From: a virus
Taxonomy: Duplodnaviria > Heunggongvirae > Uroviricota > Caudoviricetes
Virus record (IMG/VR): IMGVR_UViG_2713896908_000007
Strand: one strand, 5' to 3'
Length of the DNA: 64,000 nucleotides
Shown piece after piece: positions 6,731-62,806 of the stretch; within the stretch, counting starts at the first letter, position 1; each line of letters begins with the position of its first letter. A program made the translations under genes and the position numbers. The notes under the pieces were generated by a model, which worked only from the letters and a program-made list of their open reading frames with translations, was not told the DNA's origin and did not search any database.

Positions 6731-6758
6731 ATTACACTAATAAATTTATTAGAGCAAT
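6731..6758. promoter_or_regulatory. pair of overlapping, inverted P1 C1-repressor-type operators
   Basis: AAATTTATTAGAGCAAT (17/17 to the remembered consensus ATTGCTCTAATAAATTT, reverse orientation) overlapping ATTACACTAATAAATTT (15/17). Confidence 0.6.
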
Positions 6759-9700
6759 ATAGCAATAACGTCATGAGCTACACCACGAGTGTTCCCCTTA
6801 CAAGACACAGAACGTCTGGCAAAAAGAGGTTCCACTCTGAAGCCACTGTCTTGGTAAAGCTCCCTGATGTTTGGCGCACCACTATTAGTAATGAGGATCT
6901 TTGCACCTCGGCGATGAGCATCCATTAGCAGAGATACCAGGCGTTTTTGCTCTTCAAACTTAAAGTCATGACCGGAATAGTTTGTAAACCCCTCTGTATT
7001 GGGGAGCGGTTCATACGGAGGATCGCAAAAGATGACATCTCCTTCTCCGGCAGCTTCAATCACCGCTGAAAAATCACCACATACAAACTCAGAACGCCCT
7101 TCAGCACCAAGGAAGGCTTCCATCTCCTGTAATGGGAAATACGGAGTTTTATACTTCCCATAACCAACATTAAACTCACCGGCCTGGTTGTAACGCGTCA
7201 ATCCGTTAAAACAATGTCGGTTCAGGAACAAAAACGCTGCTGCACGATGTAAATCATCATAGGCTTGTTTGTTAAACGCATTCCGTACTGCCAGGTATCC
7301 TTCCTGTGTGTTGTAGTCCTGGAAAAACCGATGCGCCAGAGTGATAAGTGAATGACCCTCACGTTGCAGAGTCCTGTAAAAGTTAATCAGGTCAGCATTC
7401 ACATCATTTAGCAGATTTTCTTGATATCCGGCATTTATGAAGACAGCTCCGCCACCAACGAAAGGCTCGATCAGGCGCTTTCCGTCAGGTAAATGCCTAA
7501 AGATTTGTTCAAGAACACCAAATTTTCCGCCGACCCATTTAAATATGGGACGGTCAAATTCTGCCGTTAGCTTAACTCTCCGTTCTGTTGCTTCATGATT
7601 TTTTGCCTGCTGATATGCAGCCTTAATAATCCGCTCACCAATCCATCGCATTACTGGTATCGCCATGCTATTGCCGATCGCTTTGTAACGCGGTCCGTCA
7701 GCTGCAAGCATCGCGGCCTCTTCTTCGCTTAAATCTGGATAGTGATTGCGAAGGTATGCCAGTTCATCTGAAGTAACTTTTTTACGCTTTTCCGTCGGGA
7801 TCAACGTATGCCCATCAGGAAAACCTTGCAGTCTTTCACATTCGACAGGGGTAAGACGGCGGACAGCTACTGCTGCGTTTCCTACGTCATAGCAAACGGC
7901 TGTTGTATTTTTGGCCATTAAAGATGGTGAAGTATTCTTAGTTGCAGCATGTTGTGTACCGCTCATACGCTCAGGAAAAGCCAATGTAACAAGATGCTCA
8001 TGGCTTTCTTGCTCACGTGCCCGCAATGTACCATGCCCTTCTGACCAAAAACCTGCTCCTGTGCTGCTAAAAACTGCAAGGTCAGTGGCATCTTTAAAGT
8101 CTCTCGCCTTTACTGTCGATGCGGTTTCATCGCCAATATATTCCCCAAATGCCGCCATCCTGAAAGCGTTTACGGCTTTCGTCGATTTCATACCGGGGGT
8201 AATGTCAGCGTGTAGGCATGGATTTAGGCTTTCGCCACTGATTGCAGCGCCATTTGCAATAATGGCGGAAGCGATTTCCTTCTTTTTTCGGCTCGGCGCA
8301 ATATTCCGGCGCACGCCTTCGAACTCAAAAAGTACCGTTGCGGGATCGAGGTCTGTTCGAGCACTTGCGACAACAAACACGCGTCGGCGTCGTTGTGCCA
8401 CTCCGAAGTATTGGGCATCAAGGATTCTCCAGGCCACCTTTCGCTGCGGTCCATAAATACAACCACACTGCGGCCACTTTGGAGCATGGCAACCGGTTTT
8501 GCCATCCCACCGCCAGAACGCGTTACTTTTTCCTGATTCAGGTCGATCACCTGGTTCAAATGGCGCATCTTCTCCAGCCAATCCGGCAAGGAAACATCCG
8601 AAGGCGTTATCTGCCGATGACAAGACTCCTGGGACATTTTCCCAGACGATAACGGCTGGTTTGAGAAATGACTCAGCCCGTTTGTCGTCAATTGCATTTG
8701 CAAGCTCCACATACTTTAAAGTTAGCGCGCCACGCTCATCATCAAGCCCACCACGTAATCCCGCGATACTGAATGCCTGACAGTTATGGACCACCGCACC
8801 ATTGAGAATATAGGAATGATCACCTTCGACTTCTATGTTGTATACAGTATCTAGGCCTACCGATTTAAACTCTTTGACTGTTCGTAAAAGCATTCCATGA
8901 GCCAATCTTGATTTACGTGACAATTTCTGCGGGCAGATTGTTACCTGATAATAATTCCGTTGATTTACCACGCGATCCTCGATCACTTTTTTGGGCTCAA
9001 CTTCAATAAAGCTGACCGAAGAAACATAACCACAAGTCTGTGACACCCCCGCAACGCCCCAAGCAAGCGCAGGACTAACACTATTAATTCTAAATCCCGC
9101 TTTACCACTTGGTGTCCCATCAGTATCAAGATAGCCTTGTAAAAACACATGACGCAATGGATGCGACATCACCCATGCAGGGATACGCTTAGCATGGCTT
9201 AACTCGCCAAAATGTTCATTAAGCCAATTGGCATAACACGTATCATTCAAGGTTACTTTGATGCTCCCTCGGATTTCTCTTGCCACGGAAAATATGTTTT
9301 CTGGTATGCGACAATGAAACTTTCTCAATTTCTGGCAATTTATGCCAAAAACAACCGCCTTCTTAGATTTACCTCTCCATCTCCTAATATATCCATCGCC
9401 AACATAAGCGCCCGCAAGATACATAGCCTGTTCTTCAGACAAGAACCGAGAACAAATATCTGGAGATGCAATATTGAAATTAGTTAGAGCGCACCATTGA
9501 TATCCTGGCATATCACATGCTGCTCGCCATTCCGGTTCAGACAACAACTCTCTCTTAAAATATGTGCCATTTTTCCGGGTGTTTTGGGCTTTCCACCGAA
9601 CAGCCAGGAAGGGATGGTCATTGGTTGTTCTTATACCTAAAGGCTGCCCAACGGCATTAAGTAACCCCGTATTAGCTATTTTTGAACCAACTCTTTTTAC

Positions 9701-15988: not shown

Positions 15989-17185
15989 ATGAGTGATTCC
16001 AGCCAGCTTCACAAGGTTGCTCAAAGAGCAAACAGAATGCTCAATGTTCTGACTGAACAAGTACAGTTGCAAAAGGATGAGCTACACGCGAACGAGTTTT
16101 ACCAGGTCTATGCGAAAGCGGCACTGGCAAAATTGCCTCTACTGACTCGAGCGAACGTTGACTATGCCGTAAGTGAAATGGAAGAAAAGGGTTATGTTTT
16201 CGATAAACGCCCTGCTGGCTCTTCAATGAAATATGCGATGTCAATTCAGAACATCATTGATATATATGAACATCGCGGAGTGCCAAAATACCGGGATCGC
16301 TACAGCGAAGCGTATGTTATTTTCATCTCCAATCTTAAAGGCGGTGTGTCAAAAACTGTATCGACGGTTTCTCTGGCGCATGCAATGCGTGCCCACCCTC
16401 ATCTTCTGATGGAAGATTTAAGGATTCTGGTTATTGACCTTGATCCGCAATCTTCAGCAACGATGTTTTTAAGCCATAAACACTCTATTGGTATCGTAAA
16501 CGCAACATCTGCACAGGCTATGTTGCAGAATGTAAGCCGTGAAGAGCTGTTAGAGGAGTTTATTGTTCCTTCTGTTGTACCTGGGGTTGACGTTATGCCT
16601 GCGTCGATTGACGATGCCTTTATTGCATCCGATTGGAGAGAGCTGTGCAATGAGCATCTACCGGGTCAGAACATCCATGCTGTCCTGAAAGAAAATGTGA
16701 TTGATAAGCTGAAGAGCGATTATGATTTTATCCTCGTTGATAGTGGTCCTCACCTTGACGCCTTCCTGAAAAATGCTTTGGCCTCGGCCAATATACTGTT
16801 TACACCTCTGCCACCAGCAACGGTCGATTTCCACTCATCGCTTAAATACGTTGCCCGCCTTCCTGAGTTGGTGAAACTCATTTCGGATGAAGGCTGCGAG
16901 TGCCAGCTTGCGACTAACATTGGTTTTATGTCCAAGTTGAGTAACAAGGCAGACCATAAGTATTGCCATAGCCTGGCGAAAGAAGTGTTCGGTGGGGATA
17001 TGCTCGATGTCGTCCTACCTCGCCTTGATGGTTTCGAACGCTGCGGCGAGTCCTTTGACACTGTTATTTCTGCTAATCCGGCAACGTATGTTGGTAGTGC
17101 TGACGCACTGAAGAACGCGCGCATCGCCGCTGAAGATTTTGCAAAAGCAGTTTTTGACCGTATTGAATTTATCAGATCTAACTAA
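15989..17185 (+). CDS. parA: partition ATPase ParA (P1 type Ia)
   Basis: 398 aa; deviant Walker A KGGVSKT; N-terminal HTH extension; sequence matches remembered P1 ParA. Confidence 0.9.
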   Translation: MSDSSQLHKVAQRANRMLNVLTEQVQLQKDELHANEFYQVYAKAALAKLPLLTRANVDYAVSEMEEKGYVFDKRPAGSSMKYAMSIQNIIDIYEHRGVPKYRDRYSEAYVIFISNLKGGVSKTVSTVSLAHAMRAHPHLLMEDLRILVIDLDPQSSATMFLSHKHSIGIVNATSAQAMLQNVSREELLEEFIVPSVVPGVDVMPASIDDAFIASDWRELCNEHLPGQNIHAVLKENVIDKLKSDYDFILVDSGPHLDAFLKNALASANILFTPLPPATVDFHSSLKYVARLPELVKLISDEGCECQLATNIGFMSKLSNKADHKYCHSLAKEVFGGDMLDVVLPRLDGFERCGESFDTVISANPATYVGSADALKNARIAAEDFAKAVFDRIEFIRSN

Positions 17186-17201: not shown

Positions 17202-18203
17202 ATGTCAAAGAAAAACAGACCAACAATTGGGCGAACCCTTAATCCTTCAGTATTAAGCGCATTTGATAGTTCCTCTGCCTCTGGTGATCGGGTTGAGCAG
17301 GTATTCAAGCTATCAACTGGTCGCCAGGCTACATTCATTGAGGAGGTAATCCCTCCAAACCGGGTAGAAGGCGATACCTTTGTTGATCAGCATAACAACG
17401 GACGTGATCAGGCAGCTCTTACACCAAAATCATTAAAAAGCATCAGAAGCACCATTAAGCATCAGCAATTTTACCCAGCAATAGGTGTTAGACGGGCTAC
17501 AGGAAAAATTGAAATTTTGGATGGTTCCCGGCGTCGAGCTTCTGCCATCTTAGAGAACGTAGGGTTGCGGGTTTTAGTCACGGACCAGGAGATCAGCGTC
17601 CAGGAAGCGCAAAATTTAGCGAAAGACGTTCAGACAGCATTGCAGCACAGCATTCGAGAAATAGGTCTGCGTTTGATGCGAATGAAAAATGCTGGGATGA
17701 GTCAGAAGGATATTGCAGCCAAGGAAGGGCTATCTCAGGCGAAGGTCACGCGTGCTCTCCAGGCAGCGAGTGCTCCGGAAGAATTAGTCGCCCTTTTCCC
17801 TGTGCAGTCGGAATTAACCTTTTCGGACTACAAAACGCTTTGTGCTGTTGGCGACGAAATGGGGAACAAGAATTTAGAGTTTGATCAGCTTATTCAAAAC
17901 ATATCCCCGGAAATAAACGACATCTTATCCATTGAAGAAATGGCCGAAGATGAAGTTAAAAATAAAATCCTGCGCTTGATAACAAAGGAAGCCTCACTAC
18001 TCACGGATAAAGGTTCTAAAGATAAGTCCGTAGTTACTGAATTATGGAAATTTGAGGACAAAGATCGCTTTGCAAGGAAGCGCGTGAAAGGCCGTACCTT
18101 TTCCTATGAGTTTAATCGACTCTCTAAAGAGTTACAGGAAGAACTTGACAGGATGATTGGGCATATCCTAAGAAAAAGCCTCGATAAAAAGCCGAAACCT
18201 TAA
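17202..18203 (+). CDS. parB: centromere-binding partition protein ParB
   Basis: 333 aa; ParB box GSRRRAS; follows parA with RBS; matches remembered P1 ParB. Confidence 0.9.
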   Translation: MSKKNRPTIGRTLNPSVLSAFDSSSASGDRVEQVFKLSTGRQATFIEEVIPPNRVEGDTFVDQHNNGRDQAALTPKSLKSIRSTIKHQQFYPAIGVRRATGKIEILDGSRRRASAILENVGLRVLVTDQEISVQEAQNLAKDVQTALQHSIREIGLRLMRMKNAGMSQKDIAAKEGLSQAKVTRALQAASAPEELVALFPVQSELTFSDYKTLCAVGDEMGNKNLEFDQLIQNISPEINDILSIEEMAEDEVKNKILRLITKEASLLTDKGSKDKSVVTELWKFEDKDRFARKRVKGRTFSYEFNRLSKELQEELDRMIGHILRKSLDKKPKP

Positions 18204-18350: not shown

Positions 18351-18377
18351 AAGTCAACAAGTGACTTTCAATAAAAT
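18351..18377 (+). promoter_or_regulatory. candidate late promoter upstream of the capsid gene
   Basis: Inverted repeat AAGTCA-ACAAG-TGACTT, then AGTGACTTTCAATA and a TAAAAT -10-like hexamer. Confidence 0.35.
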
Positions 18378-40816: not shown

Positions 40817-43800
40817 ATGAATGACGTTACAGTTGTTACATCGGTCACTTACCCATCACCCGAGTCGTTGGCTCTGGTGGCTGATGTGCAATACCACGAA
40901 CCATATCTGTCAGCCGCGCTAAACCGAAAATTCAGGGGAATTGTTGCCCCTGGATTTTATGCCGGTTTCTTGCCTAAGCCTGGTGGTGGGATGAACCTGT
41001 TAATCACCTCAGTGGATGGTGATAAAACTGCTGGCGCTGCGTCAGTGGATATTGGTGAATTCTACCAGGTAACTATTCAGCACCGTAAGGATATTTCTCT
41101 TGCACTTAGTGCAGGTAAGAAATATGCAATTGTGCTGAAGGGAAGATACCTCCTTGGAGAGGATACCTATCAGGTTAATACCGCGTCACATATTCATGCG
41201 GCTGAATTTATTGCCAGAATCTATACCGATTCATATCAGTTGGGAGATGGGGAGCTACTTGTTTGTACGGTAAATATCCCTGCTGGCGTATCTGCCATTA
41301 CCCAGGAGATGATTGATACATCTGAGCGTATCAACCGCACGATCGGCATTGAAATATCAGACTCTGTAACCAGCACCAGAAGTGATGTTGCGGCAAGTTC
41401 GCTGGCAGTTAAAAAAGCCTACGATCTGGCGAAAAGCAAGTATACGGCGCAGGATGCAAGCACAACGCAAAAGGGATTAGTTCAGCTCAGTAGCGAAACT
41501 AACAGCGACAGCGAAACAATGGCGGCTACCCCTAAAGCCGTTAAGTCTGTAAAAGATCTTGCTGATACTAAAGCGCCAATAGAAAGCCCGAATCTGACAG
41601 GGAAACCAGGTGCCCCGACTGCGGCCCCTGGTACAAACAGCAATCAGATCGCAAATACAGCATTTGTTCATGCCGCTATAAACGCGCTTATCAACGGCGC
41701 CCCAGGAACACTGGATACGCTGAAAGAAATTGCGGCCGCTATCAACAACGATCCGAAGTTCGGCACGACTATCAATAATGCGCTGAATCTTAAGGCTCCT
41801 TTAGCAAACCCTGCATTCACCGGAATACCTACCGCGCCTACAGCACCGCAGGGTACAAATAACACACAGATAGCAACGACTGCTTATGTTAGGGCGGCTA
41901 TTTCCGCATTGGTCGGTTCATCTCCTGAAGCTCTGGATACTCTGAATGAGTTAGCTGCGGCGCTTGGCAATGACCCGAACTTTGCGACAACCATGACCAA
42001 TGCACTGGCAGGGAAACAGCCTCTTGATGCAACCTTAACCGCGCTCGCTGCCCTTGCGACTGGTGCAAATAAACTGCCTTATTTCACCGGTAAGGATACG
42101 GTAGCGCAGACTGATTTAACGTCAGTCGGTCGCGATATTCTGGCTAAAACAAGCACACTGGCCGTTATCCAATACCTTGGTTTAAGAGAACTTGGCACAA
42201 GCGGTGAAAAGATTCCCCTGTTGAGCACGGCTAACACATGGAGTGCACGCCAGACTTTCAACGGCGGGATCACCGGGGCGCTGACAGGGAACGCCGACAC
42301 CGCTACAAGATTGCAGACGGCGAGAAAAATTAATGATGTTCTATTTGATGGTTCAAAGGATATCACTTTAACTGCCGAAAACTTAAAGCTTGAGCAAACA
42401 GTAGAATTAGCTGCTGGTGCTTTACAGAAAAAACAGAACGGCGCAGATATTCCAGATAAGGGTGCTTTCCTGAACAATATTAACGCGGTCAGTAAAACAG
42501 ATTTTGCTGCTAAGCGTGGGATGCGTTATGTGCGAGTTAACGCTCCGGCAGGTGTAACGCCCGGAAAATATTACCCTGTTGTTGTAAAACGTAACTCGGG
42601 TTCAACAAGTGAACTTGCATCAAGGGTAGTTATATCCACTAAATCTGTTGGTGGAGCAGATCCTATGAACAACTGCGAGTTCAGCGGATTTGTGATGCCT
42701 GGCGGCTGGACTGACAGAGGGCGTTATGCCTATGGAATGTTCTGGCAATATCACAACAATGAACGAGCAATTCATTCGATAATGATGAGTGCTAAGTCAG
42801 ATGATTTGCACTCTGTATTCTATGTTGATGGTGCTGCTTTCCCTGTCTTTGCATTTATTGAAGATGGCCTGTCAATATCCGCACCGGGTGCTGATCTCGT
42901 TGTTAATGATACGACCTATAAGTTTGGGGCAATAAACCCGGCGACAGAATGTGTCGCGGCTGACGTTATCCTTGATTTTAAAAGTGGGCGTGGTTTTTAT
43001 GAATCTCATTCGTTAATTGTTAACGATAACTTGTCGTGCAAAAAACTTTTCGCAACAGACGAAATTGTAGCGCGTGGTGGTAATCAGATTCGAATGATAG
43101 GCGGGGAATACGGTGCGTTATGGAGAAATGACGGCGCTAAAACTTACCTGCTGCTTACCAACAAAGGTGATGTTTATGGCGAGCATAATGCATTAAGACC
43201 GTTTGCTGTTGATAACGCAACTGGTGAACTGACTGTTGGAACCAAACTATCCGCAAGTCTGAACGGTAACGCATCGACAGCAACCAAGTTACAAAATGCG
43301 ATAAATATTAATGGCGTTAAATTTGATGGTTCCAGTGATATAAATATTAATACGTTAGTATCCCGAAACCGTGTTACAGCATTAAGTGGGAGCGCAAAGG
43401 GTACGCCAGGTATCCAAATGTATGAAGCGTACAACAATGGATATCCTTTTACTTATGGTAACGTTCTTCATCTTACTGGCGCAGCAGCAGTTGGCGAAGG
43501 AGAGTTATTTATTGGGTGGAGTGGGACCAGCGGCGCTCATGCTCCGGCATATATTCGCTCCCGACGAGATACCACAGATGCTAACTGGTCGCCGTGGGCG
43601 CAGCTTTACACGTCAGCTCATCCTCCGGCAGAGTTTTATCCAGTCGGTGCCCCAATTCCGTGGCCTTCTGATGTAGTACCTACAGGTTATGCTATTATGC
43701 AGGGGCAAACTTTTGATAAGTCCGCATACCCAAAACTTGCAGTGGCTTATCCATCTGGTGTTATCCCTGATATGCGTGGATGGACAATCAAGGGTAAACC

Positions 43801-44248
43801 CGCCAGTGGGCGTGCCGTATTGTCTCAGGAACAGGATGGCATCAAGTCGCACACCCACAGTGCCAGCGCATCAAATACTGACCTCGGTACTAAAACGACC
43901 AGCTCATTTGATTACGGGACAAAAACGGTCAGCACGTTTAACCACGGTACAAAAACGACAAACAATACAGGAGCGCATACGCATACTGTCGGTGGTCGTT
44001 ACGGTGGTGACTCCATCGGGGGTAAACAACGCGTACAGGTATCAGGAACCAACCAGGTGTCAAGCTCTGCCGGAGCACATGCCCATACTGTCGATATTGG
44101 TCAGCATAACCACACCGTAGGTATTGGTGCCCATGCGCACACTGTGGCATTGGGTGCGCACGGACATACCATCACGGTTAACGCTACTGGTAATGCGGAA
44201 AACACCGTAAAAAACATTGCATATAACTATATTGTGAGGCTTGCATGA
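40817..44248 (+). CDS. S: tail fibre protein S with C-terminal HxH repeats
   Basis: ATG at 40817 after AAGGA; repeated collar motifs; C-terminal GAHTHT/GAHAHT/GAHGHT repeats of the T4 gp37-type metal-binding tip. Confidence 0.75.
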
Positions 44249-45114
44249 TTAAGTTAATTCTTTCAGCGCCAGTACATGAAATGGCTGAAGCATTTAAGCG
44301 GGTATTCGCAAATGCAGATAATGTGGATGTTGTAGAAAAAACATTTGAAGCAATCCCGGAATTTGACTGCATGGTCAGTGCGGCAAACAGTTTCGGGCTA
44401 ATGGATGGCGGCGTTGACGCTGCCATTACTGCATTCTTTGGTACTCAGTTACAGACACGTGTTCAGAATCATATTCTTCGTGAATATCTTGGTGAGCAGC
44501 CTGTAGGCACTGCATTTGTTATTGAAACGGGGGATAACAACCATCCCTGGCTGGTACATGCGCCAACAATGCGCGTTCCGCTGACCATTGACGGAACAGA
44601 CGCTGTATATAACGCCACGTGGGCTGCTTTACTTGCCATCTTTCAGCACAATAAAAATGCAACGACAGACAGGAAAATAAAGACGGTGGTATTCCCTGCA
44701 ATGGGGGCCGGATGTGGTCAGGTGCCGTTTGAAAGTGTTGCCCGGCAGATGAAGCAGGCATGGGATAACTTTAATAAAAAAACAGAAGCAATTAACTGGG
44801 AATACGCACACTCCCGCCAGTTGGCAGTATTTAATACATGCGCGTACTGCCCGGGTACTCCTGTTTGTCGTTATGCGGATATTAAATATATTGGACTTGG
44901 CGATTACCGGACGTATTGCTTACGGTCGGGGCAGGTATGCATTAATCCTGAACATCAGGTTGATGACGTGCTGACTAATAATCGTTCTCGCCCGGGGGCG
45001 CATATGCATCAGATTAATCCGGTAAAATCCGTAGGTAATATTGCCATTGGCGCACACAGCCACGGAAGGAATATCACCATTGGTGCTCATTCCCATACCC
45101 CACATAAACAATAA
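44245..45114 (+). CDS. macro-domain protein with C-terminal fibre-tip HxH repeats
   Basis: [18 protein letters not shown] and [14 protein letters not shown] match macro-domain signatures; C-terminal [17 protein letters not shown]; ATGA overlap with S. Confidence 0.75.
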
Positions 45115-45138
45115 TTCTTTCTCTGATTAGAGGTGAAA

Positions 45139-45717
45139 ATGACTTTCAGAATGAGTGCTGAAGCACAAACCATTCGCGTATTTAATTATCTCGATGGTAC
45201 AAATGAATTTATTGGAGAAAGTGATGCCTATATTCCACCACATACAGGGCTTCCGGCAAACAGCACAGATATTGCTCCTCCTAAGATTCCAGCTGGTTTT
45301 GCCGCTATATTCGACACAACCCGAAACTTATGGAATTTAATAGAGGACCATAGAGGAAAAACTGTTTATCACACTGAAACAGGTGACGCTAAAACTATAT
45401 TTAAATTAGGCGCTTTGCCTGAGGATGTTACGTGCATTCCTCCTGATGATGAGTATCAGAAGTGGAATGGAAATCAATGGGTTACAGACGATGAGGCGAA
45501 GCATCAAGCTCAGATAACCTATGCAAACTCAAAGAAAAATGAGTTGTTAAAGCACGCAAGCGTAGAGATAGCGATCTTACAAGATGCTGTTGATTTATGT
45601 ATTGCAACAGATGAAGAGAAAGTTTTATTAAATGAATGGAAAAAATACAGAGTGCTTGTAAATAGGTTAAATGAAGATGACATCATTCAAATGAAAGTCC
45701 CTGAAATACCAGTTTGA
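45139..45717 (+). CDS. U: tail fibre assembly chaperone
   Basis: Tfa-like protein (FAAIFDTT...W, DEEKVLLNEWKKYRVLVNRL); immediately follows the fibre locus. Confidence 0.7.
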   Translation: MTFRMSAEAQTIRVFNYLDGTNEFIGESDAYIPPHTGLPANSTDIAPPKIPAGFAAIFDTTRNLWNLIEDHRGKTVYHTETGDAKTIFKLGALPEDVTCIPPDDEYQKWNGNQWVTDDEAKHQAQITYANSKKNELLKHASVEIAILQDAVDLCIATDEEKVLLNEWKKYRVLVNRLNEDDIIQMKVPEIPV

Positions 45718-45771
45718 TTTATATATTAATAAGCCACTGTTGACAGGACTGTTTTACAGTGGTTTGTTTTA

Positions 45772-46920
45772 TTATCCAAACCAATTTTCTAGAACATTTT
45801 CAAATTTATGGGTAACTTGCCACCATAAATAGTTCTCTAATACATATTTCTTTCCGTTATTTGCAATTTGTTCTAATTTTTCGGAGTGTAATGTTTCATA
45901 TATATCACTAGCTAAACTTTCTGGCAACATTGGTTCATTTATATGAAATCCTGTATGGTTATTTTTTACAAATTCAACCATTCCACCTCGAGTGCTAACT
46001 AAAACGGGTTTTCCTGCCCCCATAGCTTCTATAGCAACCATGCAGAACGGTTCTTGAAACTGAGATGGGATTACAACTAGATCGGCTATAGGATAGTAAC
46101 GGTACATATCATCTGGTTTTACCCCGCCAACAAGATGACAACGCGAACCAATAGTTCCAGCAAGTTCCCTTACTTGTTTTTGATATGCAGCTTTTTCTCC
46201 TTTATCTTTATTATTGTAGTCACCAACAACTACAAGTTCTATATTGTCACATGATTTTATCAATTTTTTAAACGCTTGTAATAGTAAAACAGTCCCTTTT
46301 TCAGGGGAGATCCTTCCCGCATAAAAGATAACTTTTTTCTCAGAGGGAATGCCTAAATCTTGTTTTGTTAGCGGGGGTAGCCCTTTATCTAGATTGTGTG
46401 GTTCTGTACCATTAGGAACTATACAAATTTCAGCGTCAGGAAGATGTTTTTCATAAAAATCCTTTAAATACTGACTTGGAACAAGCATTTTCACATTGCT
46501 ATCTAGCCCTTTCGGTGTAAAGGCATTATGCATATGCATTATCATTTTTGCGTCAGGAGCTTTCTCTCTAATTTGACGATAAAGTTTCATGCTGTTATGA
46601 ACAATAATAATGCTATCGTTTGTGATATTGAAATCTTTAGCAATGTTTAACACTCGTTGTGAATATGGAATAGGATCTATTCTGCTCCATTTTTGAAATA
46701 TCCGTTTATAAAGACGGCTAAACCCTATTCTATGGATAGAGCATCGCTCATTAACAATATCTTTTTCTGAGAAACCATCCTCTCGAATGCATGCTATACG
46801 ATTTGGTATTCTTGTTCTCTTTGCGACTTGATATATCCAAGTTTCAACAGCTGCTGCGCCACGAGGTGGTATTGAAAATATTGGTGTAACTGTAAATATT
46901 AATTTGTCAATCATGAGCAA
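45772..46920 (-). CDS. GT-B fold glycosyltransferase (GT4-like)
   Basis: 382 aa; C-terminal EPFCMVAIEAMGAGKPVL fits the GT4 E-x7-E region; AT-rich; overlaps the upstream acetyltransferase gene. Confidence 0.7.
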   Translation of the reverse strand: MLMIDKLIFTVTPIFSIPPRGAAAVETWIYQVAKRTRIPNRIACIREDGFSEKDIVNERCSIHRIGFSRLYKRIFQKWSRIDPIPYSQRVLNIAKDFNITNDSIIIVHNSMKLYRQIREKAPDAKMIMHMHNAFTPKGLDSNVKMLVPSQYLKDFYEKHLPDAEICIVPNGTEPHNLDKGLPPLTKQDLGIPSEKKVIFYAGRISPEKGTVLLLQAFKKLIKSCDNIELVVVGDYNNKDKGEKAAYQKQVRELAGTIGSRCHLVGGVKPDDMYRYYPIADLVVIPSQFQEPFCMVAIEAMGAGKPVLVSTRGGMVEFVKNNHTGFHINEPMLPESLASDIYETLHSEKLEQIANNGKKYVLENYLWWQVTHKFENVLENWFG

Positions 46921-47458
46921 CTATCCTCTTATAATCTTTTTCCTTTAAATGTTTTTTTGGGGTTGCGGGAGAGCCCGCATACATTGTATTAGCAGGAACA
47001 TCAGTATTTACAACGCTATTTGCAGCTATAACACTATTGTCTCCTATTTTTACACCTGGTAGCACAGTTGTATTTGCCCCAATCCAAACATTACGGCCTA
47101 TTTTTATTGGAGCGCAAATTGTTTCTTTGGGACGTTTGCTTGGTGTTAGTGGATGCGTGACAGTTGTTAATACAACGTTGGGGCCAATGGCAGAGTTACA
47201 TCCAATATCTATTGTTTTTGCATCGAGAAAAACACAATTTGCGTTAATGAAGACCTTTTTATCAATAATTATATTGCCATTCTCAAAATAAAATGGAGCT
47301 GTTATTGTTGAGTCTTCACTTACTTTAACTCCTGTTTTTTTTAATGTGATTAATTTTTTTCTTTTTGAGATCAAGGTATAATTAAATATATGTCTTGCTT
47401 TCTTTGCTTTCTTTTTTTGAAAAATTATATAGAAATAATATGTTAGCAAATCAAACAT
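46907..47458 (-). CDS. hexapeptide-repeat acetyltransferase
   Basis: Tandem left-handed beta-helix hexapeptides (IGRNVWIGANTTV, IGDNSVIAANSVV); AT-rich. Confidence 0.7.
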   Translation of the reverse strand: MFDLLTYYFYIIFQKKKAKKARHIFNYTLISKRKKLITLKKTGVKVSEDSTITAPFYFENGNIIIDKKVFINANCVFLDAKTIDIGCNSAIGPNVVLTTVTHPLTPSKRPKETICAPIKIGRNVWIGANTTVLPGVKIGDNSVIAANSVVNTDVPANTMYAGSPATPKKHLKEKDYKRIVAHD

Positions 47459-47482
47459 TGTTGTTTTACTTCCATTTAAAAT

Positions 47483-47812
47483 TTAACTATCAAATGTGGC
47501 TCCTATTTCTCGCATTTTGTTAAGTATGATGTTTATTTCATTGCTACCGAGAGAAGTTTGGGCAGCTATGAAAAAAAGTATGTGCAATGACATAGATCTG
47601 TTATTTTCTTTGTTTATATATTTTCTCCACTGGCTATCGCTGCTGACCCCGGCTAGTTCTGCCATTTGATTCCCTGTATACCCAAGCGTTTCTTTGAATT
47701 GACGCAAATCTTGTGATTTGGGGGGGGTGTAGTTGTTTATTAACCTCATATTAAACCCATTATTGGTAAGCTTTCGTTGGTGTAATGGTAGCACCAATGG
47801 GGCTGCTGTCAA
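47483..47812 (-). CDS. small HTH-like protein at the head of the GT/acetyltransferase cassette
   Basis: ORF with a probable HTH (LGYTGNQMAELAGVSSDSQW); start uncertain (track TTG, or internal ATG at 47749). Confidence 0.35.
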   Translation of the reverse strand: MTAAPLVLPLHQRKLTNNGFNMRLINNYTPPKSQDLRQFKETLGYTGNQMAELAGVSSDSQWRKYINKENNRSMSLHILFFIAAQTSLGSNEINIILNKMREIGATFDS

Positions 47813-47889
47813 GCGTCTTTTCTTTATAAATATAGGGAGCCATCAAAATCTGACATTAATTATCTATCGAAATATTTTGAATGACTGGT

Positions 47890-47910
47890 GAGAAGTTACT
47901 TTGCATACCA
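47890..47910 (+). promoter_or_regulatory. candidate late promoter upstream of lydA
   Basis: GAGAAGTTACTTTGCATACCA; the AGTTACTTTGCATA core recurs upstream of other late genes. Confidence 0.35.
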
Positions 47911-47939
47911 TTACCTCCTGACAACGTAGGAGGGAACTT

Positions 47940-48269
47940 GTGCTTGACACACAGGAATTAGCTCCAGTTGCTATTGCGCTCCTGCTTTCAGTAATTGGTG
48001 GGATAGGCACGTTCCTGATGGATGTCCGAGACGGTCGCCAGTCTGGCAATTTGTTGGGATTGGTTACGGAGATCTTTGTTGCAGTGACAGCTGGCGCGGT
48101 GGCGTACCTATTGGGGCAACACGAGGGCTGGGAGTTATCAATTACGTACTTAATGGTAACGATAGCCAGCAATAACGGTCATGAGGTGATTTCAGGGATG
48201 AAACGAGTGAATATCGATAGCATTCTGAATGTTCTTACAAGTTTGGTGAAAAAGGGAGGCGGGAAATGA
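47940..48269 (+). CDS. lydA: holin
   Basis: 109 aa with hydrophobic helices and basic C-terminus; GTG start after AGGAGG; coupled to the next gene. Confidence 0.65.
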   Translation: MLDTQELAPVAIALLLSVIGGIGTFLMDVRDGRQSGNLLGLVTEIFVAVTAGAVAYLLGQHEGWELSITYLMVTIASNNGHEVISGMKRVNIDSILNVLTSLVKKGGGK

Positions 48270-48709
48270 TTGGCTGGGGTGTATGCGCTCTTGCGGCAGC
48301 CTTAGCTGATCGCTATTTGCTAAAACGCAAGGACATCACGAATTTAGAGCTTGGTGATGTGGAAATTAAACCGGGATTTATCCGGGTGCCGTTCAAATAT
48401 CGGTCTAAATTCCCGTTTTTGCGCGGTGCAACGGTCAGATATTGGCTCCGTGATGTTCAGAAGCCGACGACAGTGATTGAAGGCGAACAACGTTGCCTGA
48501 CGTCGGCTGAACAGGGCGAAAACAGTGAATGGTTGTACATACCCACTGAATATATGGGTAAAGGAGAACGACTGTGGCATTTCAACGTCATGGTTACGCA
48601 CGGCGACTCGTTCATTAACCCGTTGTATCGGATTTTCCCTGTTACTCAGCAAATCCGCAGAAGTTACGTAATAAATCTCGCACAGGATGTGTCAGATGAC
48701 GAAAAATAA
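48266..48709 (+). CDS. lydB: lysis regulator (antiholin-like) LydB
   Basis: 147-aa ORF coupled to the holin, as in the P1 lydA-lydB pair. Confidence 0.55.
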   Translation: MIGWGVCALAAALADRYLLKRKDITNLELGDVEIKPGFIRVPFKYRSKFPFLRGATVRYWLRDVQKPTTVIEGEQRCLTSAEQGENSEWLYIPTEYMGKGERLWHFNVMVTHGDSFINPLYRIFPVTQQIRRSYVINLAQDVSDDEK

Positions 48710-49298
48710 GTATGCAACGGTCGATTTTGACCAGGTTAATGAAAAGGGGCTTAAATCCCTTATCACGGCGATCAATAAAACCGGTGTTACGGTAATTGAG
48801 GTTGACTCCAGCAACCGCGCAACTACGAAAGATGGCGTTAAAGTTAAAACCGCAAAGTTGGTTCTTAACGACGGACAAATTCTTGCTATACAGGTAAATG
48901 ATACTGGCGATATATCGTCTGTGAAACTGAATGGAAAAGCTATTCCTAATGCTCAATCGCCAGATATCAAGACGCTTGGTACCGTCATGGGGCAAGCGGC
49001 CCACAAAAACGCTGCAAAATTCCAGAAATCACTGATCGCCAAAGCTAAACGTGTTGCCAATCCGGTAGACAAGAAACCGGCAGTTAAATCCAACTTTCAG
49101 CGCCTGCAAGAGGCAAAACAGCGGAATGCTCAGGTGGTTGCCGCTTATAAATCCGCGCAGAACTCGGTGTCTTTCAATCAACAGCAGATCACTGATTTGC
49201 GGGCGAAGCTGGATAAGGAGACAGGTCGACTCAATAACGAAAAGGCCAGGAATGGCGAACTCAAACGCCGTCTTAAGCAACTGAAAGCAGGAAATTAA
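48696..49298 (+). CDS. Dar-operon protein (hdf-like)
   Basis: About 200-aa ORF immediately upstream of and coupled to darA; basic coiled-coil C-terminus. Confidence 0.45.
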   Translation: MTKNKYATVDFDQVNEKGLKSLITAINKTGVTVIEVDSSNRATTKDGVKVKTAKLVLNDGQILAIQVNDTGDISSVKLNGKAIPNAQSPDIKTLGTVMGQAAHKNAAKFQKSLIAKAKRVANPVDKKPAVKSNFQRLQEAKQRNAQVVAAYKSAQNSVSFNQQQITDLRAKLDKETGRLNNEKARNGELKRRLKQLKAGN

Positions 49299-51219: not shown

Positions 51220-51602
51220 CACTATCAGCTATTGAGTTAATGGACCTCAGCGATAAGTTGGATGCTCTGATGTCCAAAGCTGCTACCGCGAGTGGCATGG
51301 AGTTGCTGGATATCAGCGATGAAATTGACCAGATCATGCAACAGATGGGGTACGGCGCGTCCGGCGGCGGTAGTGGCGAGGAAAAACAACCTTCAGTACA
51401 TGATGGTGTGCCAAAACTGGTTGCTGATTTCCTGGCTGATAAATTCGTCGATCAGAGCACCGATGCATTTATCGGCACCTTGCAGGACTTGAGTCAATAT
51501 GTTGGCACATACATCGACCTGGACCAGGTTAAACAGCACACGGCGGCATGGATAGCCGCCAACATTAAAGAGGCTTCAGGTGTTCGCAGCAACTCTACAT
51601 GA
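51216..51602 (+). CDS. DdrA-like small acidic protein
   Basis: 128-aa ORF coupled to darA. Confidence 0.45.
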   Translation: MTLSAIELMDLSDKLDALMSKAATASGMELLDISDEIDQIMQQMGYGASGGGSGEEKQPSVHDGVPKLVADFLADKFVDQSTDAFIGTLQDLSQYVGTYIDLDQVKQHTAAWIAANIKEASGVRSNST

Positions 51603-51663
51603 GCTGTAGTTTTCGAAGATTCTCACAAGTTCATTTCGCGTAGGTATTTATTTAACCATTAAA

Positions 51664-51701
51664 GCCGAATGCGGCGGGCACACCACATTCGGCAATTTTT
51701 T
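51664..51701. terminator. rho-independent terminator between convergent ddrA-like gene and gldA
   Basis: GCCGAATG ... CATTCGGC hairpin followed by AATTTTTT. Confidence 0.65.
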
Positions 51702-51735
51702 GAAAACTATCAATGAATTAAATAATCAGAGGGGC

Positions 51736-52839
51736 TTATTCCCACTCTTGCAGGAAACGCTGACCGTACTGGTCGGCTACCAGCAGTGCAGCATAAACCT
51801 GATCTGGCGTTGCGCCGCCAGGCATGTTGTGGATGGTTTCACCTTCTGCACATGCCGCTTCTGCGACAATCCGCATTTTCGCCGGGATATCTTCTTTAAT
51901 ATCCAGTTGTGCCAGGGTAATTGGCAGGCCGACAGCATGGCACAGCGCAGCTACGGTTTCGATTTCTTCAACTGGTGCGTTTTCCAGAACCAGTTGCGTC
52001 AGCGTACCGAATGCCACTTTCTCACCGTGATAATAGTGATGCGCATCCGGAATGGCCGTCAGGCCATTGTGCACCGCGTGCGCCGCCGCCAGGCCGCCGC
52101 TTTCAAAGCCCACGCCGCTCAAATAGGTGTTAGCTTCAATCACACGTTCCAGCGCCGGAGTCACCACATGCTGTTCAGCGGCAAGCATCGCTTTTTCGCC
52201 TTCTTCCAGCAGGGTGTTGTAGCACAGTTCAGCCAGAGCCAGTGCTGCCTGAGTACATTTACCGCCCGCCATCGTGGTTGCGCCGCTGCGGGAACAGGCA
52301 CGTGCTTCAAACCAGGTTGCCAACGCATCGCCAATACCCGCCGCTAACAGACGTGCAGGTGCGCCAGCAACAATTTTGGTATCCACAATGACGCGTTCCG
52401 GGTTGTTTGGCAGCATCAGATAACGTTCAAACTCACCATCATCGGTGTAGATAACGGAAAGGGCGCTGCAAGGTGCGTCGGTTGAGGCAATGGTTGGGGC
52501 AACTGCAACAGGAACGCCCATAAAGTGTGCCAGTGCTTTGGCTGTATCGAGGGTTTTACCTCCGCCGATTCCCAGAATTGCGCTACACTGAGCATTCTCT
52601 GCAATACCCCGCAGACGATCGATTTCATTTTGCGAACATTCACCGCCGAACGGGGCAATTTCTACCTCTATTCCAGCATCTTTAAAACTTTTCTCAATAT
52701 TAGTTTGAGCAAAACCTAACACAAATTTGTCACCTACCACCAACCAATGTTCTGCCAGCGGTTTCAGGTATTCACCCAGGCGATTAATGACATCTGCGCC
52801 TTGGATGTATTTACCCGGTGATTGAATGATGCGGTCCAT
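51736..52839 (-). CDS. gldA: glycerol dehydrogenase (iron-containing ADH family), host-type metabolic gene
   Basis: 367 aa; first ~190 residues match remembered E. coli GldA almost exactly, C-terminal half more diverged; own AAGGAG RBS. Confidence 0.9.
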
Positions 52840-52986
52840 AATTGCTCCTTTAGAGATGAGTTATGCTAAATGTTTTGTTATTCCCGGATGACCTTCTGTA
52901 TATATCTTAAGTCAACATTATAAGTTGACGCCAATATTCCGTAGAAGAGATGTTACTTCGCGAGCAGTATGACTCCATAGGTTTCT

Positions 52987-53005
52987 GAGACGTTACTTTG
53001 CATAT
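52987..53005 (+). promoter_or_regulatory. candidate late promoter
   Basis: GAGACGTTACTTTGCATAT, sharing the GTTACTTTGCATA core with the lydA upstream motif. Confidence 0.3.
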
Positions 53006-53142
53006 GATATTGCTGAGGCAAATACATTCAATGCCGCATTTTTGTGAGATTTTAAGCCAATCTACATCACCATTAGGTAAGAGTATCTTTTTTTGGTGGT
53101 GATGGCGCAATGTATCAGTGGACAGCATAAGGTGTAACAGGG

Positions 53143-54831
53143 ATGTGTTTGAACGATCATACAGTTATGGCCACCAGCAGCGGCTACATCGGTGTGGCAC
53201 CGTATACCCGCTTGCTATTACATCAGGCATCCGGCATCAAAGATATTATTCACCTGATCAGGCTGCTTTCCCGTACAGATCCCCAGGATGAACAGCTTGT
53301 TCAAGTGCTTGCGCATTTTGTCCGAATGCCTGTTGCCGACGTGAAAAAATGGTGCCGATTATTCGGTATCAGCAATTCGTTACTTCGCGGATTGTTAAAT
53401 CACGCATCCTCCCTTGGGCGCGACGGATTTGATGAGATAGCGCAGGCGATAAAAAACGGAGATATGCCACCAGCTATTGACTGGTTTTCCATTCGCCCAA
53501 CCAGGGTGAAAGCATTCCTTAGTGCGGCGCAATCAGCATCACCATTGGCAGAAATGGTTCAGAGGTTGTCGCTCATATTCACAGATCATACCGCGTTCGG
53601 TGATCTGGCTCTGGACGAGATGAAAGAAGCCTCCATTCAGTGGGCCGCTCAACAAAATGAGGTTAACTCAGACTTCTTGCCAGCATTCAGGAAGGCCGTT
53701 AGTAAAGCGGATGATGCCCGTGGAATTCTGAAGGCATTTAAGGCATTGCAAAGTCGGGTTAATAAACATGTCGGTGATATCGATGGGGTAACGGCGGAAG
53801 GCAGGGATATCCTTAAAGAGCACGGCATAACGCCAGAGTTTATTGATGAGATCAGGACGGATATGCAGCGTGAGGTCGTATCGTCCCTGCAAATTGTAGC
53901 CAGAGCGTTGGCGGATGCTAATCCGAAGAGTGCGGCCATTGTTAACCGGGTTATTGGTGATATTGAAGCATCGGAGGGCATGGGGGCGCTGAAACTCTTC
54001 CTTTCGCGAGCGTTTAATCCTAACGGCAATATTCTCCCTGGCATTATTGGTGAGGCTAAAAGGTATGTCAGTGAAGAAGAACTTGAGCAGCTTGACCAAC
54101 TACTTAAGCGATTCTCATATAACCCGCAGACACGCTGGCAAATGAATCAGCGAAGTATGGGTTCGGTCCACGAGAAAGTGTTATCTGCCATGAACAGTGC
54201 GATCGCAAACTCATCCGTATCTGAAGAAAAAGCTCTTGAGTGGGCCGACTCTTTTATCACGGAAGAAGTGGAAGAAGCCCGCGCTGGACAGAATGGTGGG
54301 ATAGACCTGCGCAAGGAACTTGCTGATATTTATCGCCTGACCGGCGGTAAAATTTCGACCCTATCAAAGATAATTCACCACCAGGGAAGGGCATATGCAA
54401 ATCTTAATGGTATTGTTGCTGTCAATTTGAACGATGAAAATGCAAGCGCACTGTGGCACGAGCTTGGTCATCATCTTGAGTACAGTAACCCTGGTCTGTT
54501 AGAGAAAGCCAGGTCATTCCTGAAGGCCAATGTTGAAGGGGATAAGCCATCTTTCGTTAATATCGGTGGGCGTGGTAAACCTGAATGGTGCTTCAGATCT
54601 CGATTGAGTAATATTTATATGGCGAAGGTATACCCGCCAGCCTCAGTGAGTAACTCCGGGAAAATTCGGCAGAAAGCACCGACTATTTCCAAAACGTCAG
54701 CAACGGAAGTATTCTCTATGGCTCTTCAGTTGTATCATGACAAAGAGGCCGCTGCCGCATCACTGATGAATGGTGACGGATTGCTGGAACTGTTATTAGG
54801 TGTGGCAAAGGAGCTAAATAATGCAGATTAA
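53143..54831 (+). CDS. large protein with C-terminal HExxH zincin-like motif
   Basis: 562 aa; WHELGHHLEYSNPG near the C-terminus; coupled to a small acidic ORF; occupies the region where P1 has ddrB. Confidence 0.45.
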   Translation: MCLNDHTVMATSSGYIGVAPYTRLLLHQASGIKDIIHLIRLLSRTDPQDEQLVQVLAHFVRMPVADVKKWCRLFGISNSLLRGLLNHASSLGRDGFDEIAQAIKNGDMPPAIDWFSIRPTRVKAFLSAAQSASPLAEMVQRLSLIFTDHTAFGDLALDEMKEASIQWAAQQNEVNSDFLPAFRKAVSKADDARGILKAFKALQSRVNKHVGDIDGVTAEGRDILKEHGITPEFIDEIRTDMQREVVSSLQIVARALADANPKSAAIVNRVIGDIEASEGMGALKLFLSRAFNPNGNILPGIIGEAKRYVSEEELEQLDQLLKRFSYNPQTRWQMNQRSMGSVHEKVLSAMNSAIANSSVSEEKALEWADSFITEEVEEARAGQNGGIDLRKELADIYRLTGGKISTLSKIIHHQGRAYANLNGIVAVNLNDENASALWHELGHHLEYSNPGLLEKARSFLKANVEGDKPSFVNIGGRGKPEWCFRSRLSNIYMAKVYPPASVSNSGKIRQKAPTISKTSATEVFSMALQLYHDKEAAAASLMNGDGLLELLLGVAKELNNAD

Positions 54832-57733: not shown

Positions 57734-57865
57734 AATGTATATCTTTGAAACGTAGCTAACAAGTGATTTGCATTATCCTGTGCCTTCTAAAGGGATCGAG
57801 TCAGTCGGTATTGGCTGTGAATGGGTGTTTGTCCTGGAGCGTAAAATTTCGCTTATGAGGTCTTT

Positions 57866-58714: not shown

Positions 58715-59734
58715 TTATTTAAATGGATTGATTGAATTATTAAACGTGATGATGCTTGTCTCACACGGTGCCTGGACGTTAGCCGCTTGCGGAACCTCCT
58801 TAATTTTCTTGGTGACAGGCAAGTTGCGTGCTCCAACTTTGATCAGAGATTCGAAAAGTGTGGCAACGATTTTTGCATCACCAGGTTCTTTGAGGCGGAA
58901 TGCGTCTTTTTGGGCGGCGGAGACGAAGATTGGGAGGTTATCCAGTTCGTCTTGCATCGCTGCCAGCACATCATCGCGGATACCCGCTGTTTCCTCCAGC
59001 AAAGCGATTCGCGCTTCAGCATCTGCGATCTTGGCCATTGCTTCGAGGTGGCGGCCCTGGCTTTCGAGTAGTGCAGTTTCCAGTTCTGCCGTACGCTCTG
59101 TCGCCTCCACCATCATTTCCAGTTCAGCCATTTTGCCGTAATGGGATATAACGGCCTGCACTGACTCGTCGGAGTACCCATGCGCCGCCAGGGACTCTGC
59201 CAGTAAGGATTTAGAATCCGCGCTTTCAAACATTCCGGCGCTGGCAGGATGATCCAGGCTGATATAGTTCGGCGTTGTCACATAATCCACACCATGGAAG
59301 CTGGTGGTTACAGCGATTTTCCCGGACTCACGCCCGCCAGTGGCCCAGCTCCAGCCACCAGCTCGGCTTTCGATCATCGCGGCGACAATTTTACCCGGCT
59401 CTGTGTTAAGAATTTCCTGTGTATGGGTAACGATTCCGTTGTCGTCAACAGATATAGCCACTGTGCGGCACGCTGGAACATTGTCGATTACGACCGGGCG
59501 ACCTTCCACCATGATCACGCTGGTTTCTGGTACTTCCAGTTTGCCGGTCAGCTGTCGGCGACCGTGACCGTAATAGCCGAAAAGCTCACCAAGGCGTAAA
59601 CCTTCCTGAGTTTCCTTGCTTTCAAGCATGGTCTTAACCGCGCTTAATACATACTGTCGCCCGTTCTGGCGACCTTTTCGAGCATTGCTATAGAGACAAA
59701 AGCGGTCAGTGACCGTTTTCAAAACATCAGTCAT
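58715..59734 (-). CDS. head morphogenesis protein (protease/scaffold-like, P1 pro position)
   Basis: 339 aa with a coiled-coil C-terminal half; position between lyz and portal candidate. Confidence 0.4.
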   Translation of the reverse strand: MTDVLKTVTDRFCLYSNARKGRQNGRQYVLSAVKTMLESKETQEGLRLGELFGYYGHGRRQLTGKLEVPETSVIMVEGRPVVIDNVPACRTVAISVDDNGIVTHTQEILNTEPGKIVAAMIESRAGGWSWATGGRESGKIAVTTSFHGVDYVTTPNYISLDHPASAGMFESADSKSLLAESLAAHGYSDESVQAVISHYGKMAELEMMVEATERTAELETALLESQGRHLEAMAKIADAEARIALLEETAGIRDDVLAAMQDELDNLPIFVSAAQKDAFRLKEPGDAKIVATLFESLIKVGARNLPVTKKIKEVPQAANVQAPCETSIITFNNSINPFK

Positions 59735-61009
59735 TATATTGCCCTCCAGCTACCTTACCTAATGTCTGTTGGTATATTGGCTTTGATAACATTTTCGTCC
59801 GTGTATTCATTTATATACTCATTAGTTTCAATGTATTATATAGAACATGAAGCGTGCCTATAAATATCGATTCTATCCAACTCCCGAACAAACCGAGCTA
59901 TTAGCCCGGACTTTTGGGTGTGTGCGTTTTGTCTATAACAGCCTCCTTCGCTGGCGTACCGATGCATACTACGCACGCCATGAGAGGGTCGGCTATGCAC
60001 AAGCCAGCGCCAAATTAACGGCACTGAAAAAAGAACCAGAATTCGCTTGGCTGAATGACGTTTCCTGCGTCCCCCTCCAGCAGTCTCTGCGCCACCAACA
60101 AACGGCTTTTGCTAACTTTTTCGCCGGGCGTGCTGCATACCCAGTTTTTAAGAGCAAGCGGCATAAACAGGCCGCAGAACTAACTGCCAGCGCATTTAAA
60201 TACCGTGACGGCAAGCTGTACATGGCAAAGAGCAAAGAGCCGTTAGATGTTCGCTGGAGCCGTCCGTTGCCGTCTGCTCCATCCACTGTCACTATCACCA
60301 GGGATGCTGCCGGACGATATTTTGTATCCTGTCTCTGCGAGTTTGAGCCTGTATCACTGCCGATCACCGTTTCCACGGTCGGCATTGATATTGGTTTAAA
60401 AGATTTGTTCGTCACCGATACCGGTTTCAAAACTGGCAATCCTCGACACAACGCTAAATACGCGAAGCGATTAGCAGTGTTACAGCGCAGATTGAGCAAG
60501 AAACAAAAAGGCTCAAAGAACCGCGCCAAAGCACGTTTAAAGGTTGCCCGCCTCCACGCGAGAATAGTCGATTGTCGGATGGATAACCTGCATAAGTTGT
60601 CCCGCAAACTGATTAACGAAAACCAAGTTGTTTGCGTCGAATCCCTTAAAGTGAAAAACATGATCCGTAACCCGAAGCTGTCTAAAGCAATAGCTGACGC
60701 AGGCTGGAGCGAACTTGTACGCCAACTCCAGTACAAAGGAGAATGGGGTGGACGTAGCATTGTCGCTATCGACCAGTATTTCCCTTCTTCCAAACGTTGC
60801 AGCAGTTGCGGCTTCACCATGCAAAAAATGCCTCTTAATATTCGTAAATGGCACTGCCCGGAATGTGGCGCAGAGCATGATCGTGATATTAACGCGGCCC
60901 GTAATATAAAAGCTGCCGGGCTGGCAGTGTTAGCCCTTGGAGAGTCTGTAATTCCTAAGCCGCTTCATGTGGTTTAGGTCGGACTCTGTGAATTGGGAAT
61001 GTTTGCCGT
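59735..61009 (+). mobile_element. solo TnpB element (IS200/IS605 family, no tnpA), filling the gap between two structural genes
   Basis: Single tnpB ORF plus about 110 bp left and 30 bp right flanks; element ends not defined. Confidence 0.55.
59847..60977 (+). CDS. tnpB: TnpB, RuvC-like RNA-guided nuclease
   Basis: Hallmark N-terminus MKRAYKYRFYPTPEQ; RuvC motifs (GIDIGLKD, ...E..., HDRDINAARNI); zinc finger CSSCG...CPECG. Confidence 0.85.
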   Translation: MKRAYKYRFYPTPEQTELLARTFGCVRFVYNSLLRWRTDAYYARHERVGYAQASAKLTALKKEPEFAWLNDVSCVPLQQSLRHQQTAFANFFAGRAAYPVFKSKRHKQAAELTASAFKYRDGKLYMAKSKEPLDVRWSRPLPSAPSTVTITRDAAGRYFVSCLCEFEPVSLPITVSTVGIDIGLKDLFVTDTGFKTGNPRHNAKYAKRLAVLQRRLSKKQKGSKNRAKARLKVARLHARIVDCRMDNLHKLSRKLINENQVVCVESLKVKNMIRNPKLSKAIADAGWSELVRQLQYKGEWGGRSIVAIDQYFPSSKRCSSCGFTMQKMPLNIRKWHCPECGAEHDRDINAARNIKAAGLAVLALGESVIPKPLHVV

Positions 61010-62740
<1,731 letters not shown>

Positions 62741-62806
62741 TTAATTAGAATAATTCGCATCGTGTTTTAACGGAATTTAACACTAGTCACTTGTTAAGGA
62801 TTACCA

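Follow-up and report, generated by a model that had tools for sequence, protein, structure and literature searches.

The stretch of DNA analysed here (64,000 nucleotides, hereafter the window) belongs to a P1-like phage-plasmid. By local BLAST it mapped to P1 (AF234172) from position 75493 to position 16044, in reverse orientation, with several segments of P1 replaced. Identity to phage P1 and other Punavirus genomes was approximately 95-97% over window positions 47000-49000 and 1-25000, and positions 39870-64000 were 99.97% identical to pEA16-1_1 (NZ_CP117651.1), a P1-like phage-plasmid of Escherichia albertii. Positions 47894-47907, which read AGTTACTTTGCATA, lie upstream of lydA. To the left of this segment, the tail-fibre and invertible-segment region (42355-47879) differs from that of P1. 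Where P1 has cin, the annotation of the matching plasmid places a macro-domain protein (44245-45114) and, on the minus strand at 46907-47458, an acetyltransferase of the DapH/GlmU-like type; an unrelated minus-strand ORF of 109 aa (47483-47812), for which Pfam gave no match, occupies the place of lydC. To the right, the darA anti-restriction operon is split between ddrA and a ddrB-like gene by an insertion that carries gldA.

A first-pass annotation of this DNA had noted near-identical words in front of several genes and proposed that they serve the phage late activator as a common late-promoter element. The listed sequences were all found where it placed them, at 47894, 52991, 18359, 40323 and 62785; they include AGTGACTTTCAATA at 18360-18373, AGTTACTT at 40323-40330 and AGTCACTT at 62785-62792, and the window contains just two exact copies of the 13-mer GTTACTTTGCATA, at 47895 and 52992. 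The proposal itself was borne out by the P1 reference genome AF234172, in which LPdar, LP23, LPs and LPpro are annotated at these places. Specifically, window positions 47893-47911 are identical to the P1 sequence annotated as 'late promoter LPdar', on which AF234172 marks a '-22 region' and a -10, and also to the '-22 signal' of AJ000741. From these sequence comparisons, the recurrent AGTTACTT-type word very probably represents the upstream half of the phage P1 late promoter. In this architecture an imperfect inverted repeat of 9 bp with the consensus AAGTNACTT, centred near -22 and in most cases following AC, is separated by exactly 4 nt from a sigma-70 -10 hexamer TANNNT; there is no -35 element. 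The coordinates of the sites and of the inserted DNA are collected in Table 1.

Table 1 Late promoters, candidate late promoter and features of the gldA insertion in the window
Feature	Position	Strand	Sequence	Context	P1 AF234172 counterpart
LP23	18359..18377	+	AAGTGACTT-tcaa-TAAAAT	51 nt upstream of major capsid gene 23 (start 18429)	58825-58843, 'predicted late promoter LP23', identical
LPsit	32126..32144	+	AAATGACTA-ctcg-TAGAAT	31 nt upstream of pmgC (32176); heads tail operon pmgC-tub-pmgB-sit	46608-46626, identical
LPs (Ps)	40322..40340	+	AAGTTACTT-ctct-TACAAT	30 nt upstream of R (40371); heads tail-fibre operon R-S-U; preceded by a GC-rich hairpin	38318-38336, one spacer mismatch
LPdar	47893..47911	+	-22 box AAGTTACTT 47893-47901; spacer TGCA 47902-47905; -10 TACCAT 47906-47911	28 nt upstream of lydA (GTG, 47940); would drive lydA-lydB-hdf-darA-ddrA	31212-31230, identical
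Insertion (~1.54 kb)	51582..53121		 	between ddrA and ddrB-like gene; gldA, with the candidate promoter at the right end	
Terminator-like hairpin	51664..51700	+	GCCGAATG...CATTCGGC then AATTTTTT	between ddrA stop and gldA 3' end	
Candidate extra late promoter	52990..53008	+	ACGTTACTT-tgca-TATGAT	134 nt upstream of ddrB-like HExxH ORF 53143-54831 (562 aa)	
LPlyz	57761..57779	+	AAGTGATTT-gcat-TATCCT	86 nt upstream of lyz (57866)	20969-20987, identical
LPpro	62774..62792	-	box AAGTGACTA 62792-62784; -10 TAAATT 62779-62774	42 nt upstream of prt (start 62731)	17251-17269, identical

Of the eleven late promoters that AF234172 annotates in P1, with a '-22 region' and a -10 as features, six belong to the portion covered by the window, and all six were present at orthologous positions (18359, 32126, 40322, 47893, 57761 and 62774) with 0-1 mismatch per 19 nt. 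Four of these had been listed in the first-pass annotation, which missed LPsit (32126) and LPlyz (57761). Every one of the six is intergenic and co-oriented with the gene downstream. The earlier estimate that the elements lie 20-40 bp before gene starts did not hold throughout, as start codons lay 28-86 nt from the -10 at the six P1-type sites and 134 nt from it at the additional copy at 52990. When these seven sites were examined together, a TANNNT hexamer followed the box by exactly 4 nt in 7/7, and, with spacings of 16-18 nt allowed, none of them had a -35 matching at more than 2/6 positions. The inverted repeat was perfect at 18359, 40322 and 47893, with 2 or 3 of 4 arm pairs complementary at 32126, 57761 and 62774.

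Enrichment of the motif depended on how the motif was defined. The 13-mer singled out by the first-pass annotation was not enriched over shuffles when up to three mismatches were allowed (23 occurrences vs 20.9 expected), and it was replaced by a box-N4-(-10) definition. With that definition the background-corrected search that the annotation had suggested did separate signal from composition. The consensus AAGTNACTT occurred at 6 sites (~1 expected), AAGTNACTT-N4-TANNNT at 3 (0.01 expected) and the relaxed pattern ADRTNAYTW-N4-TANNNT at 6 (0.94 expected); each of these counts was reached in 0/200 dinucleotide-preserving shuffles, and the matches to the relaxed pattern were exactly the six orthologues. 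A position weight matrix (PWM) built from the four P1 late promoters outside the window placed 5/6 orthologues in the top 6 of ~128,000 positions. With a PWM from ten P1 late promoters the six sites all reached 19 bits or more and the runner-up 15.4, a gap that is partly circular because this matrix includes the P1 versions of the six window sites. LPsit, absent from the earlier list, scored 20.6 bits.

These results bear on the alternative that the recurrence is a compositional accident, in which an AT-rich word happens to precede several genes. The frequency of the 13-mer with three mismatches allowed, which is that of the shuffles, fits such an accident, and an exact 13-mer common to two intergenic regions is not rare by itself (~0.7 expected pairs by our estimate). 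However, the combined box and -10 architecture was reached in none of the shuffles, the six top PWM matches are all intergenic and co-oriented, the sites are identical to P1 annotations that have an experimental foundation, and among relatives the Cronobacter phage JK004 conserves box and spacing while phage D6 has replaced the box. An accident of composition is ruled out by the shuffles, the PWM placement and the JK004 conservation, and we give it a vanishingly small probability.

Conservation within the closest relatives was of limited use here. The six orthologues are ~95-100% identical to P1 together with their flanking genes, so that conservation among Punavirus genomes adds little independent evidence. 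Similarly, LPdar was invariant in 80 P1-like viral contigs carrying lydA loci (IMG/VR), with at least six unrelated upstream contexts and a break in homology 4-13 bp upstream of the box, but all 80 loci were 99% identical downstream; because lydA itself is conserved to this degree, the invariance mainly maps where mosaic boundaries are tolerated. Real divergence came only from JK004 and D6. In JK004, whose capsid protein is 81% identical, box, 4-nt spacer and -10 were found at 6/6 orthologous positions. The box was 83%, the -10 81% and the spacer 67% identical to the window, compared with 43-47% for 30-nt flanks. At the LP23 orthologue, JK004 keeps the box, the spacer and 5/6 -10 bases.

Phage D6 (MF356679.1) is more distant, with a capsid protein 45% identical and a diverged lpa, and no P1 box was found in its genome above the background-corrected level. 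D6 instead carries AAATCACA-N7-NANNNT 8 times vs 0.24 expected, in front of orthologous late operons, from which we infer the D6 late promoters. D6 motif positions in MF356679.1 are 19215, 25221, 27727, 38115, 45491, 54124, 67393, 71013 and 72100. The predicted D6 promoters resemble those of P1 in their positions before R, prt, capsid, gp26, mat and the lysis gene and in a layout of activator box plus -10 without -35, and D6 encodes an lpa homologue; they differ in that the D6 box is of other sequence, is non-palindromic and lies 7 nt from the -10. The comparison of JK004 and D6 suggests that promoter positions are conserved in the group and that the box changes with the activator, which is the behaviour expected of an activator-binding site. 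The comparison with D6 also offers a straightforward case in which to test co-evolution of the activator with its box in the P1 supergroup.

The gene assignments of the first-pass annotation stood for LP23 (capsid), LPs (R) and LPdar (lydA), but the site at 62785, which it had assigned to darB, is LPpro and points toward prt/pro. On the plus strand, 14 nt separate the end of the box from the darB ATG (62807), and AGGATT, the hexamer found in place of a -10, overlaps the darB Shine-Dalgarno region. The box therefore cannot serve darB, as the would-be -10 coincides with the Shine-Dalgarno region, and no same-strand -10 was found upstream of the ribosome-binding site. Conceivably the box at 62784-62792 is bidirectional and also supports Lpa-dependent transcription of darB, since it is nearly palindromic, since in the P1 annotation a single -22 box serves the divergent promoters LP26 and LPpmgL, and since darB encodes a virion protein for which late synthesis is expected. 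Against this, AGGATT does not match TANNNT, a start ~7 nt beyond it would fall at or after the ATG, and P1 annotates a separate sigma-70 promoter, PdarB, further upstream. We consider a bidirectional box very improbable and retain LPpro as a promoter directed toward prt. Within the prt/pro region, a TnpB-family (IS200/IS605-type) gene at 59847-60977 (+), annotated in the matching plasmid as 'RNA-guided endonuclease TnpB', lies between prt and pro on the strand opposite the LPpro operon. A search upstream of pro found no late-promoter-like site, so that pro would depend on read-through across the TnpB gene.

Other boxes were found in the window. The site at 26429-26447 (+), equivalent to P1 50726-50744 (-), combines a perfect -22 box with a weak -10 (AAGTGACTT-tagc-CAGCAT), is 16/19 identical to LPmat and lies antisense to repL, across its start codon. 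The site is also conserved in P1, without annotation there, and could be either an Lpa-dependent antisense promoter against the lytic-replication genes or a chance match. Perfect AAGTTACTT boxes without TANNNT at the -10 position also occur in coding regions, at 37302-37310 in sit and at 7771-7779 in a dmt-like ORF; the box in sit is conserved in P1 at 41412.

We then considered the copy at 52990-53008, which is located in the DNA inserted between ddrA and the ddrB-like gene. Local BLAST found no P1 homology across 51575-53184. The inserted gldA (51736-52839, minus strand) encodes a bacterial glycerol dehydrogenase, as judged from the Pfam family Fe-ADH and from the plasmid annotations, and shares ~88% identity with gldA of E. 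coli. Where P1-like plasmids lack gldA, 12 nt with no promoter separate ddrA from the same 562-aa ORF. This ORF is the HExxH gene that the first-pass annotation had placed downstream of ~52991, and a HELGH motif was indeed present at residue 439; no Pfam family was found for the protein. The insertion was recovered at full coverage in 16 plasmid records, 15 of which are E. albertii P1-like plasmids, and in no record of the phage collection. Related copies are present in an E. albertii IncF plasmid (pEA32_1) and in an E. coli plasmid (pZ1323HEC0477-2). Between ddrA and gldA, the 76-nt stretch 51640-51715 that contains the terminator-like hairpin folds at -19.8 kcal/mol (z = -2.97 vs shuffles), and the remaining copies of the module retain the hairpin. 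It would be expected, from this predicted fold, to stop LPdar transcripts before they reach the ddrB-like gene.

The origin of the DNA beside gldA was sought in several collections. Positions 52873-53122 gave no match in the phage collection in distant mode and matched one plasmid only among E. coli complete genomes; two exact-pattern scans of 185,000 species genomes returned no matches for this region, and an exact 17-mer scan of IMG/VR for the gldA-side DNA returned three unrelated chance matches only. Two further elements were noted in this DNA. A perfect inverted repeat, GTCAAC-N7-GTTGAC (52911-52929), lies upstream of gldA, overlaps a TATAAT on the gldA strand and is preserved in each of the four module copies; it may be a gldA operator or promoter. 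A second GTTACTT box at 52951-52975 (+), 40 bp upstream of the 52990 site, reads ATGTTACTT followed after 9 nt by TATGAC; this spacing resembles the 9 nt of P1 LPhot, but the last T is missing from the -10.

The 52990 site has no P1 counterpart, since the DNA that carries it is absent from P1 and from every record of the phage collection, and its promoter function is predicted from sequence features. It is 18/19 identical to LPdar, the TGAG flank included, with 3/4 arm pairs of the box complementary, as in LPlyz and LPpro. Apart from altered homologues in two non-P1 plasmids, the site is confined to gldA-carrying E. albertii P1-like plasmids, which at 96.8-100% identity are too little diverged for an informative conservation test. 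The 4-nt spacing, the good -10 (TATGAT), the lack of a -35 and the orientation toward the ddrB-like gene all speak for promoter function, as do the hairpin upstream and the close ddrA-ddrB' linkage of the gldA-less plasmids. Comparison with relatives points the same way: D6 has a late box in its ddrA-ddrB gap, after a hairpin and before the ddrB homologue, and the LPsit orthologue of JK004 also carries C at box position 2. Against it stands the 134-nt leader, longer than that of any P1 late promoter. On this evidence we put at a little under an even chance the reading that 52990-53008 is a lineage-specific twelfth Lpa-dependent late promoter which would restore late expression of the ddrB-like gene. 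That this promoter derives from LPdar, by descent or by copying, at the border of a gldA 'moron' of host origin, and so would offset a polar insertion carrying a terminator, is a proposal we likewise hold with slightly less than even confidence.

The competing explanation, to which we assign an even chance, is that the site is not a late promoter and that its resemblance is a coincidence or a relict in non-coding DNA that travels with the gldA cassette. The DNA would then be the divergent regulatory region of gldA or debris of the cassette edge, and the ddrB-like gene would be served by read-through or left unexpressed. With the ten-promoter PWM the site scored 9.4 bits and ranked 17, a low score that results from the C at box position 2 and the G in the -10. 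The BLAST-short match to LPdar had an E-value of only 0.012 against the window, and the same 253-nt segment matched an unrelated part of D6 equally well (18/19), which indicates that such matches can arise by chance; no longer similarity of the region to P1, D6 or JK004 was found beyond the 19-mer. A minus-strand sigma-70-like element, TTGAAT-16-TATCAT, overlaps the TATGAT -10, and the 134 nt to the ORF again favour this explanation. So do the two non-P1 plasmids, both lacking phage context: segment 52873-53015 accompanies gldA in pZ1323HEC0477-2 with a 5-nt spacer that breaks the P1 architecture, and pEA32_1 has ACATGACTT. However, the IncF copy in pEA32_1 has P1-derived flanks, and the non-phage copies may instead descend from a phage copy and be decaying. 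A coincidental or relict match would also have to coincide precisely with a functional late promoter, LPdar, while being intergenic and in the correct orientation and sharing the unusual TGAG flank, at a place where the hairpin of the insertion creates a need for a new promoter and where the D6 ddrB homologue has a late box of its own.

P1 late promoters and their activator Lpa have been in the literature since the early 1990s. The late promoters of the window are already known, being annotated for P1 in the reference genome, and the mechanism gains nothing new from them; the sole new element is the LPdar-like candidate promoter copy beside the gldA insertion. The analysis does show that a real regulon signal can be recovered by a reader from the sequence alone, and its practical value is a corrected late-promoter list for an E. 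albertii phage-plasmid, with six promoters in the window and one moved from darB to prt/pro. If the 52990 copy is active, it would show phage-plasmids keeping late operons working after acquiring host genes. In that case promoter recruitment would have repaired an operon split by cargo acquisition, and a ddrB-like virion/anti-restriction gene would stay late.

The activator gene itself maps outside the 64-kb window (lpa is at 89991-90443 in P1), and in the 99.97%-identical plasmid pEA16-1_1 positions 6736-7188 code for a 'Late promoter-activating protein'; LPpac and LPmat of this plasmid are identical to those of P1. According to published work on P1, Lpa (gp10) is made early from a C1-repressed promoter and binds the inverted repeat of the box. 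Together with the host RNA-polymerase-associated protein SspA as co-activator it then recruits E-sigma70, whereby the morphogenesis, lysis, packaging and anti-restriction operons switch on late. Lpa binding, SspA dependence and transcription starts at the window sites are predicted by extension from this literature. The 11 late promoters of P1 each contain an inverted repeat of 9 bp, which is the site for Lpa (PMC10695390). According to Hansen et al. 2003, as summarised in PMC1891329, Lpa activates by binding DNA sequence-specifically and requires host SspA as a co-activator; SspA is proposed to touch RNA polymerase and DNA-bound Lpa at the same time (see also PMC8201110).

The Lpa-dependent set of P1 comprises LPmat, LPpro, LPlyz, LPdar, LPs, LPsit, LP23, LP26, LPpmgL, LPhot and LPpac. 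The six window sites share with it the -22 repeat, the 4-nt spacer, the -10, the lack of a -35 and the downstream operons, and no difference was found, whereas the 52990 site has no counterpart in the set, a C at box position 2 and a longer, 134-nt leader. A similar arrangement is known from the middle promoters of phage T4, in which a MotA box replaces the -35 of a sigma-70 promoter and a second, RNA-polymerase-associated protein is needed. The T4 proteins are unrelated, however, and the MotA box, centred at -30, lacks dyad symmetry; in addition, the T4 co-factor AsiA is a phage product that remodels sigma region 4, whereas SspA, the co-factor in P1, comes from the host. The MglA-SspA/PigR system of Francisella also parallels P1, as its DNA-bound activator is proposed to act via an SspA-family protein attached to RNA polymerase, and the authors of that proposal name P1 Lpa/SspA as the precedent (PMC1891329). 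It differs in being a bacterial virulence regulon with another activator and another DNA element.
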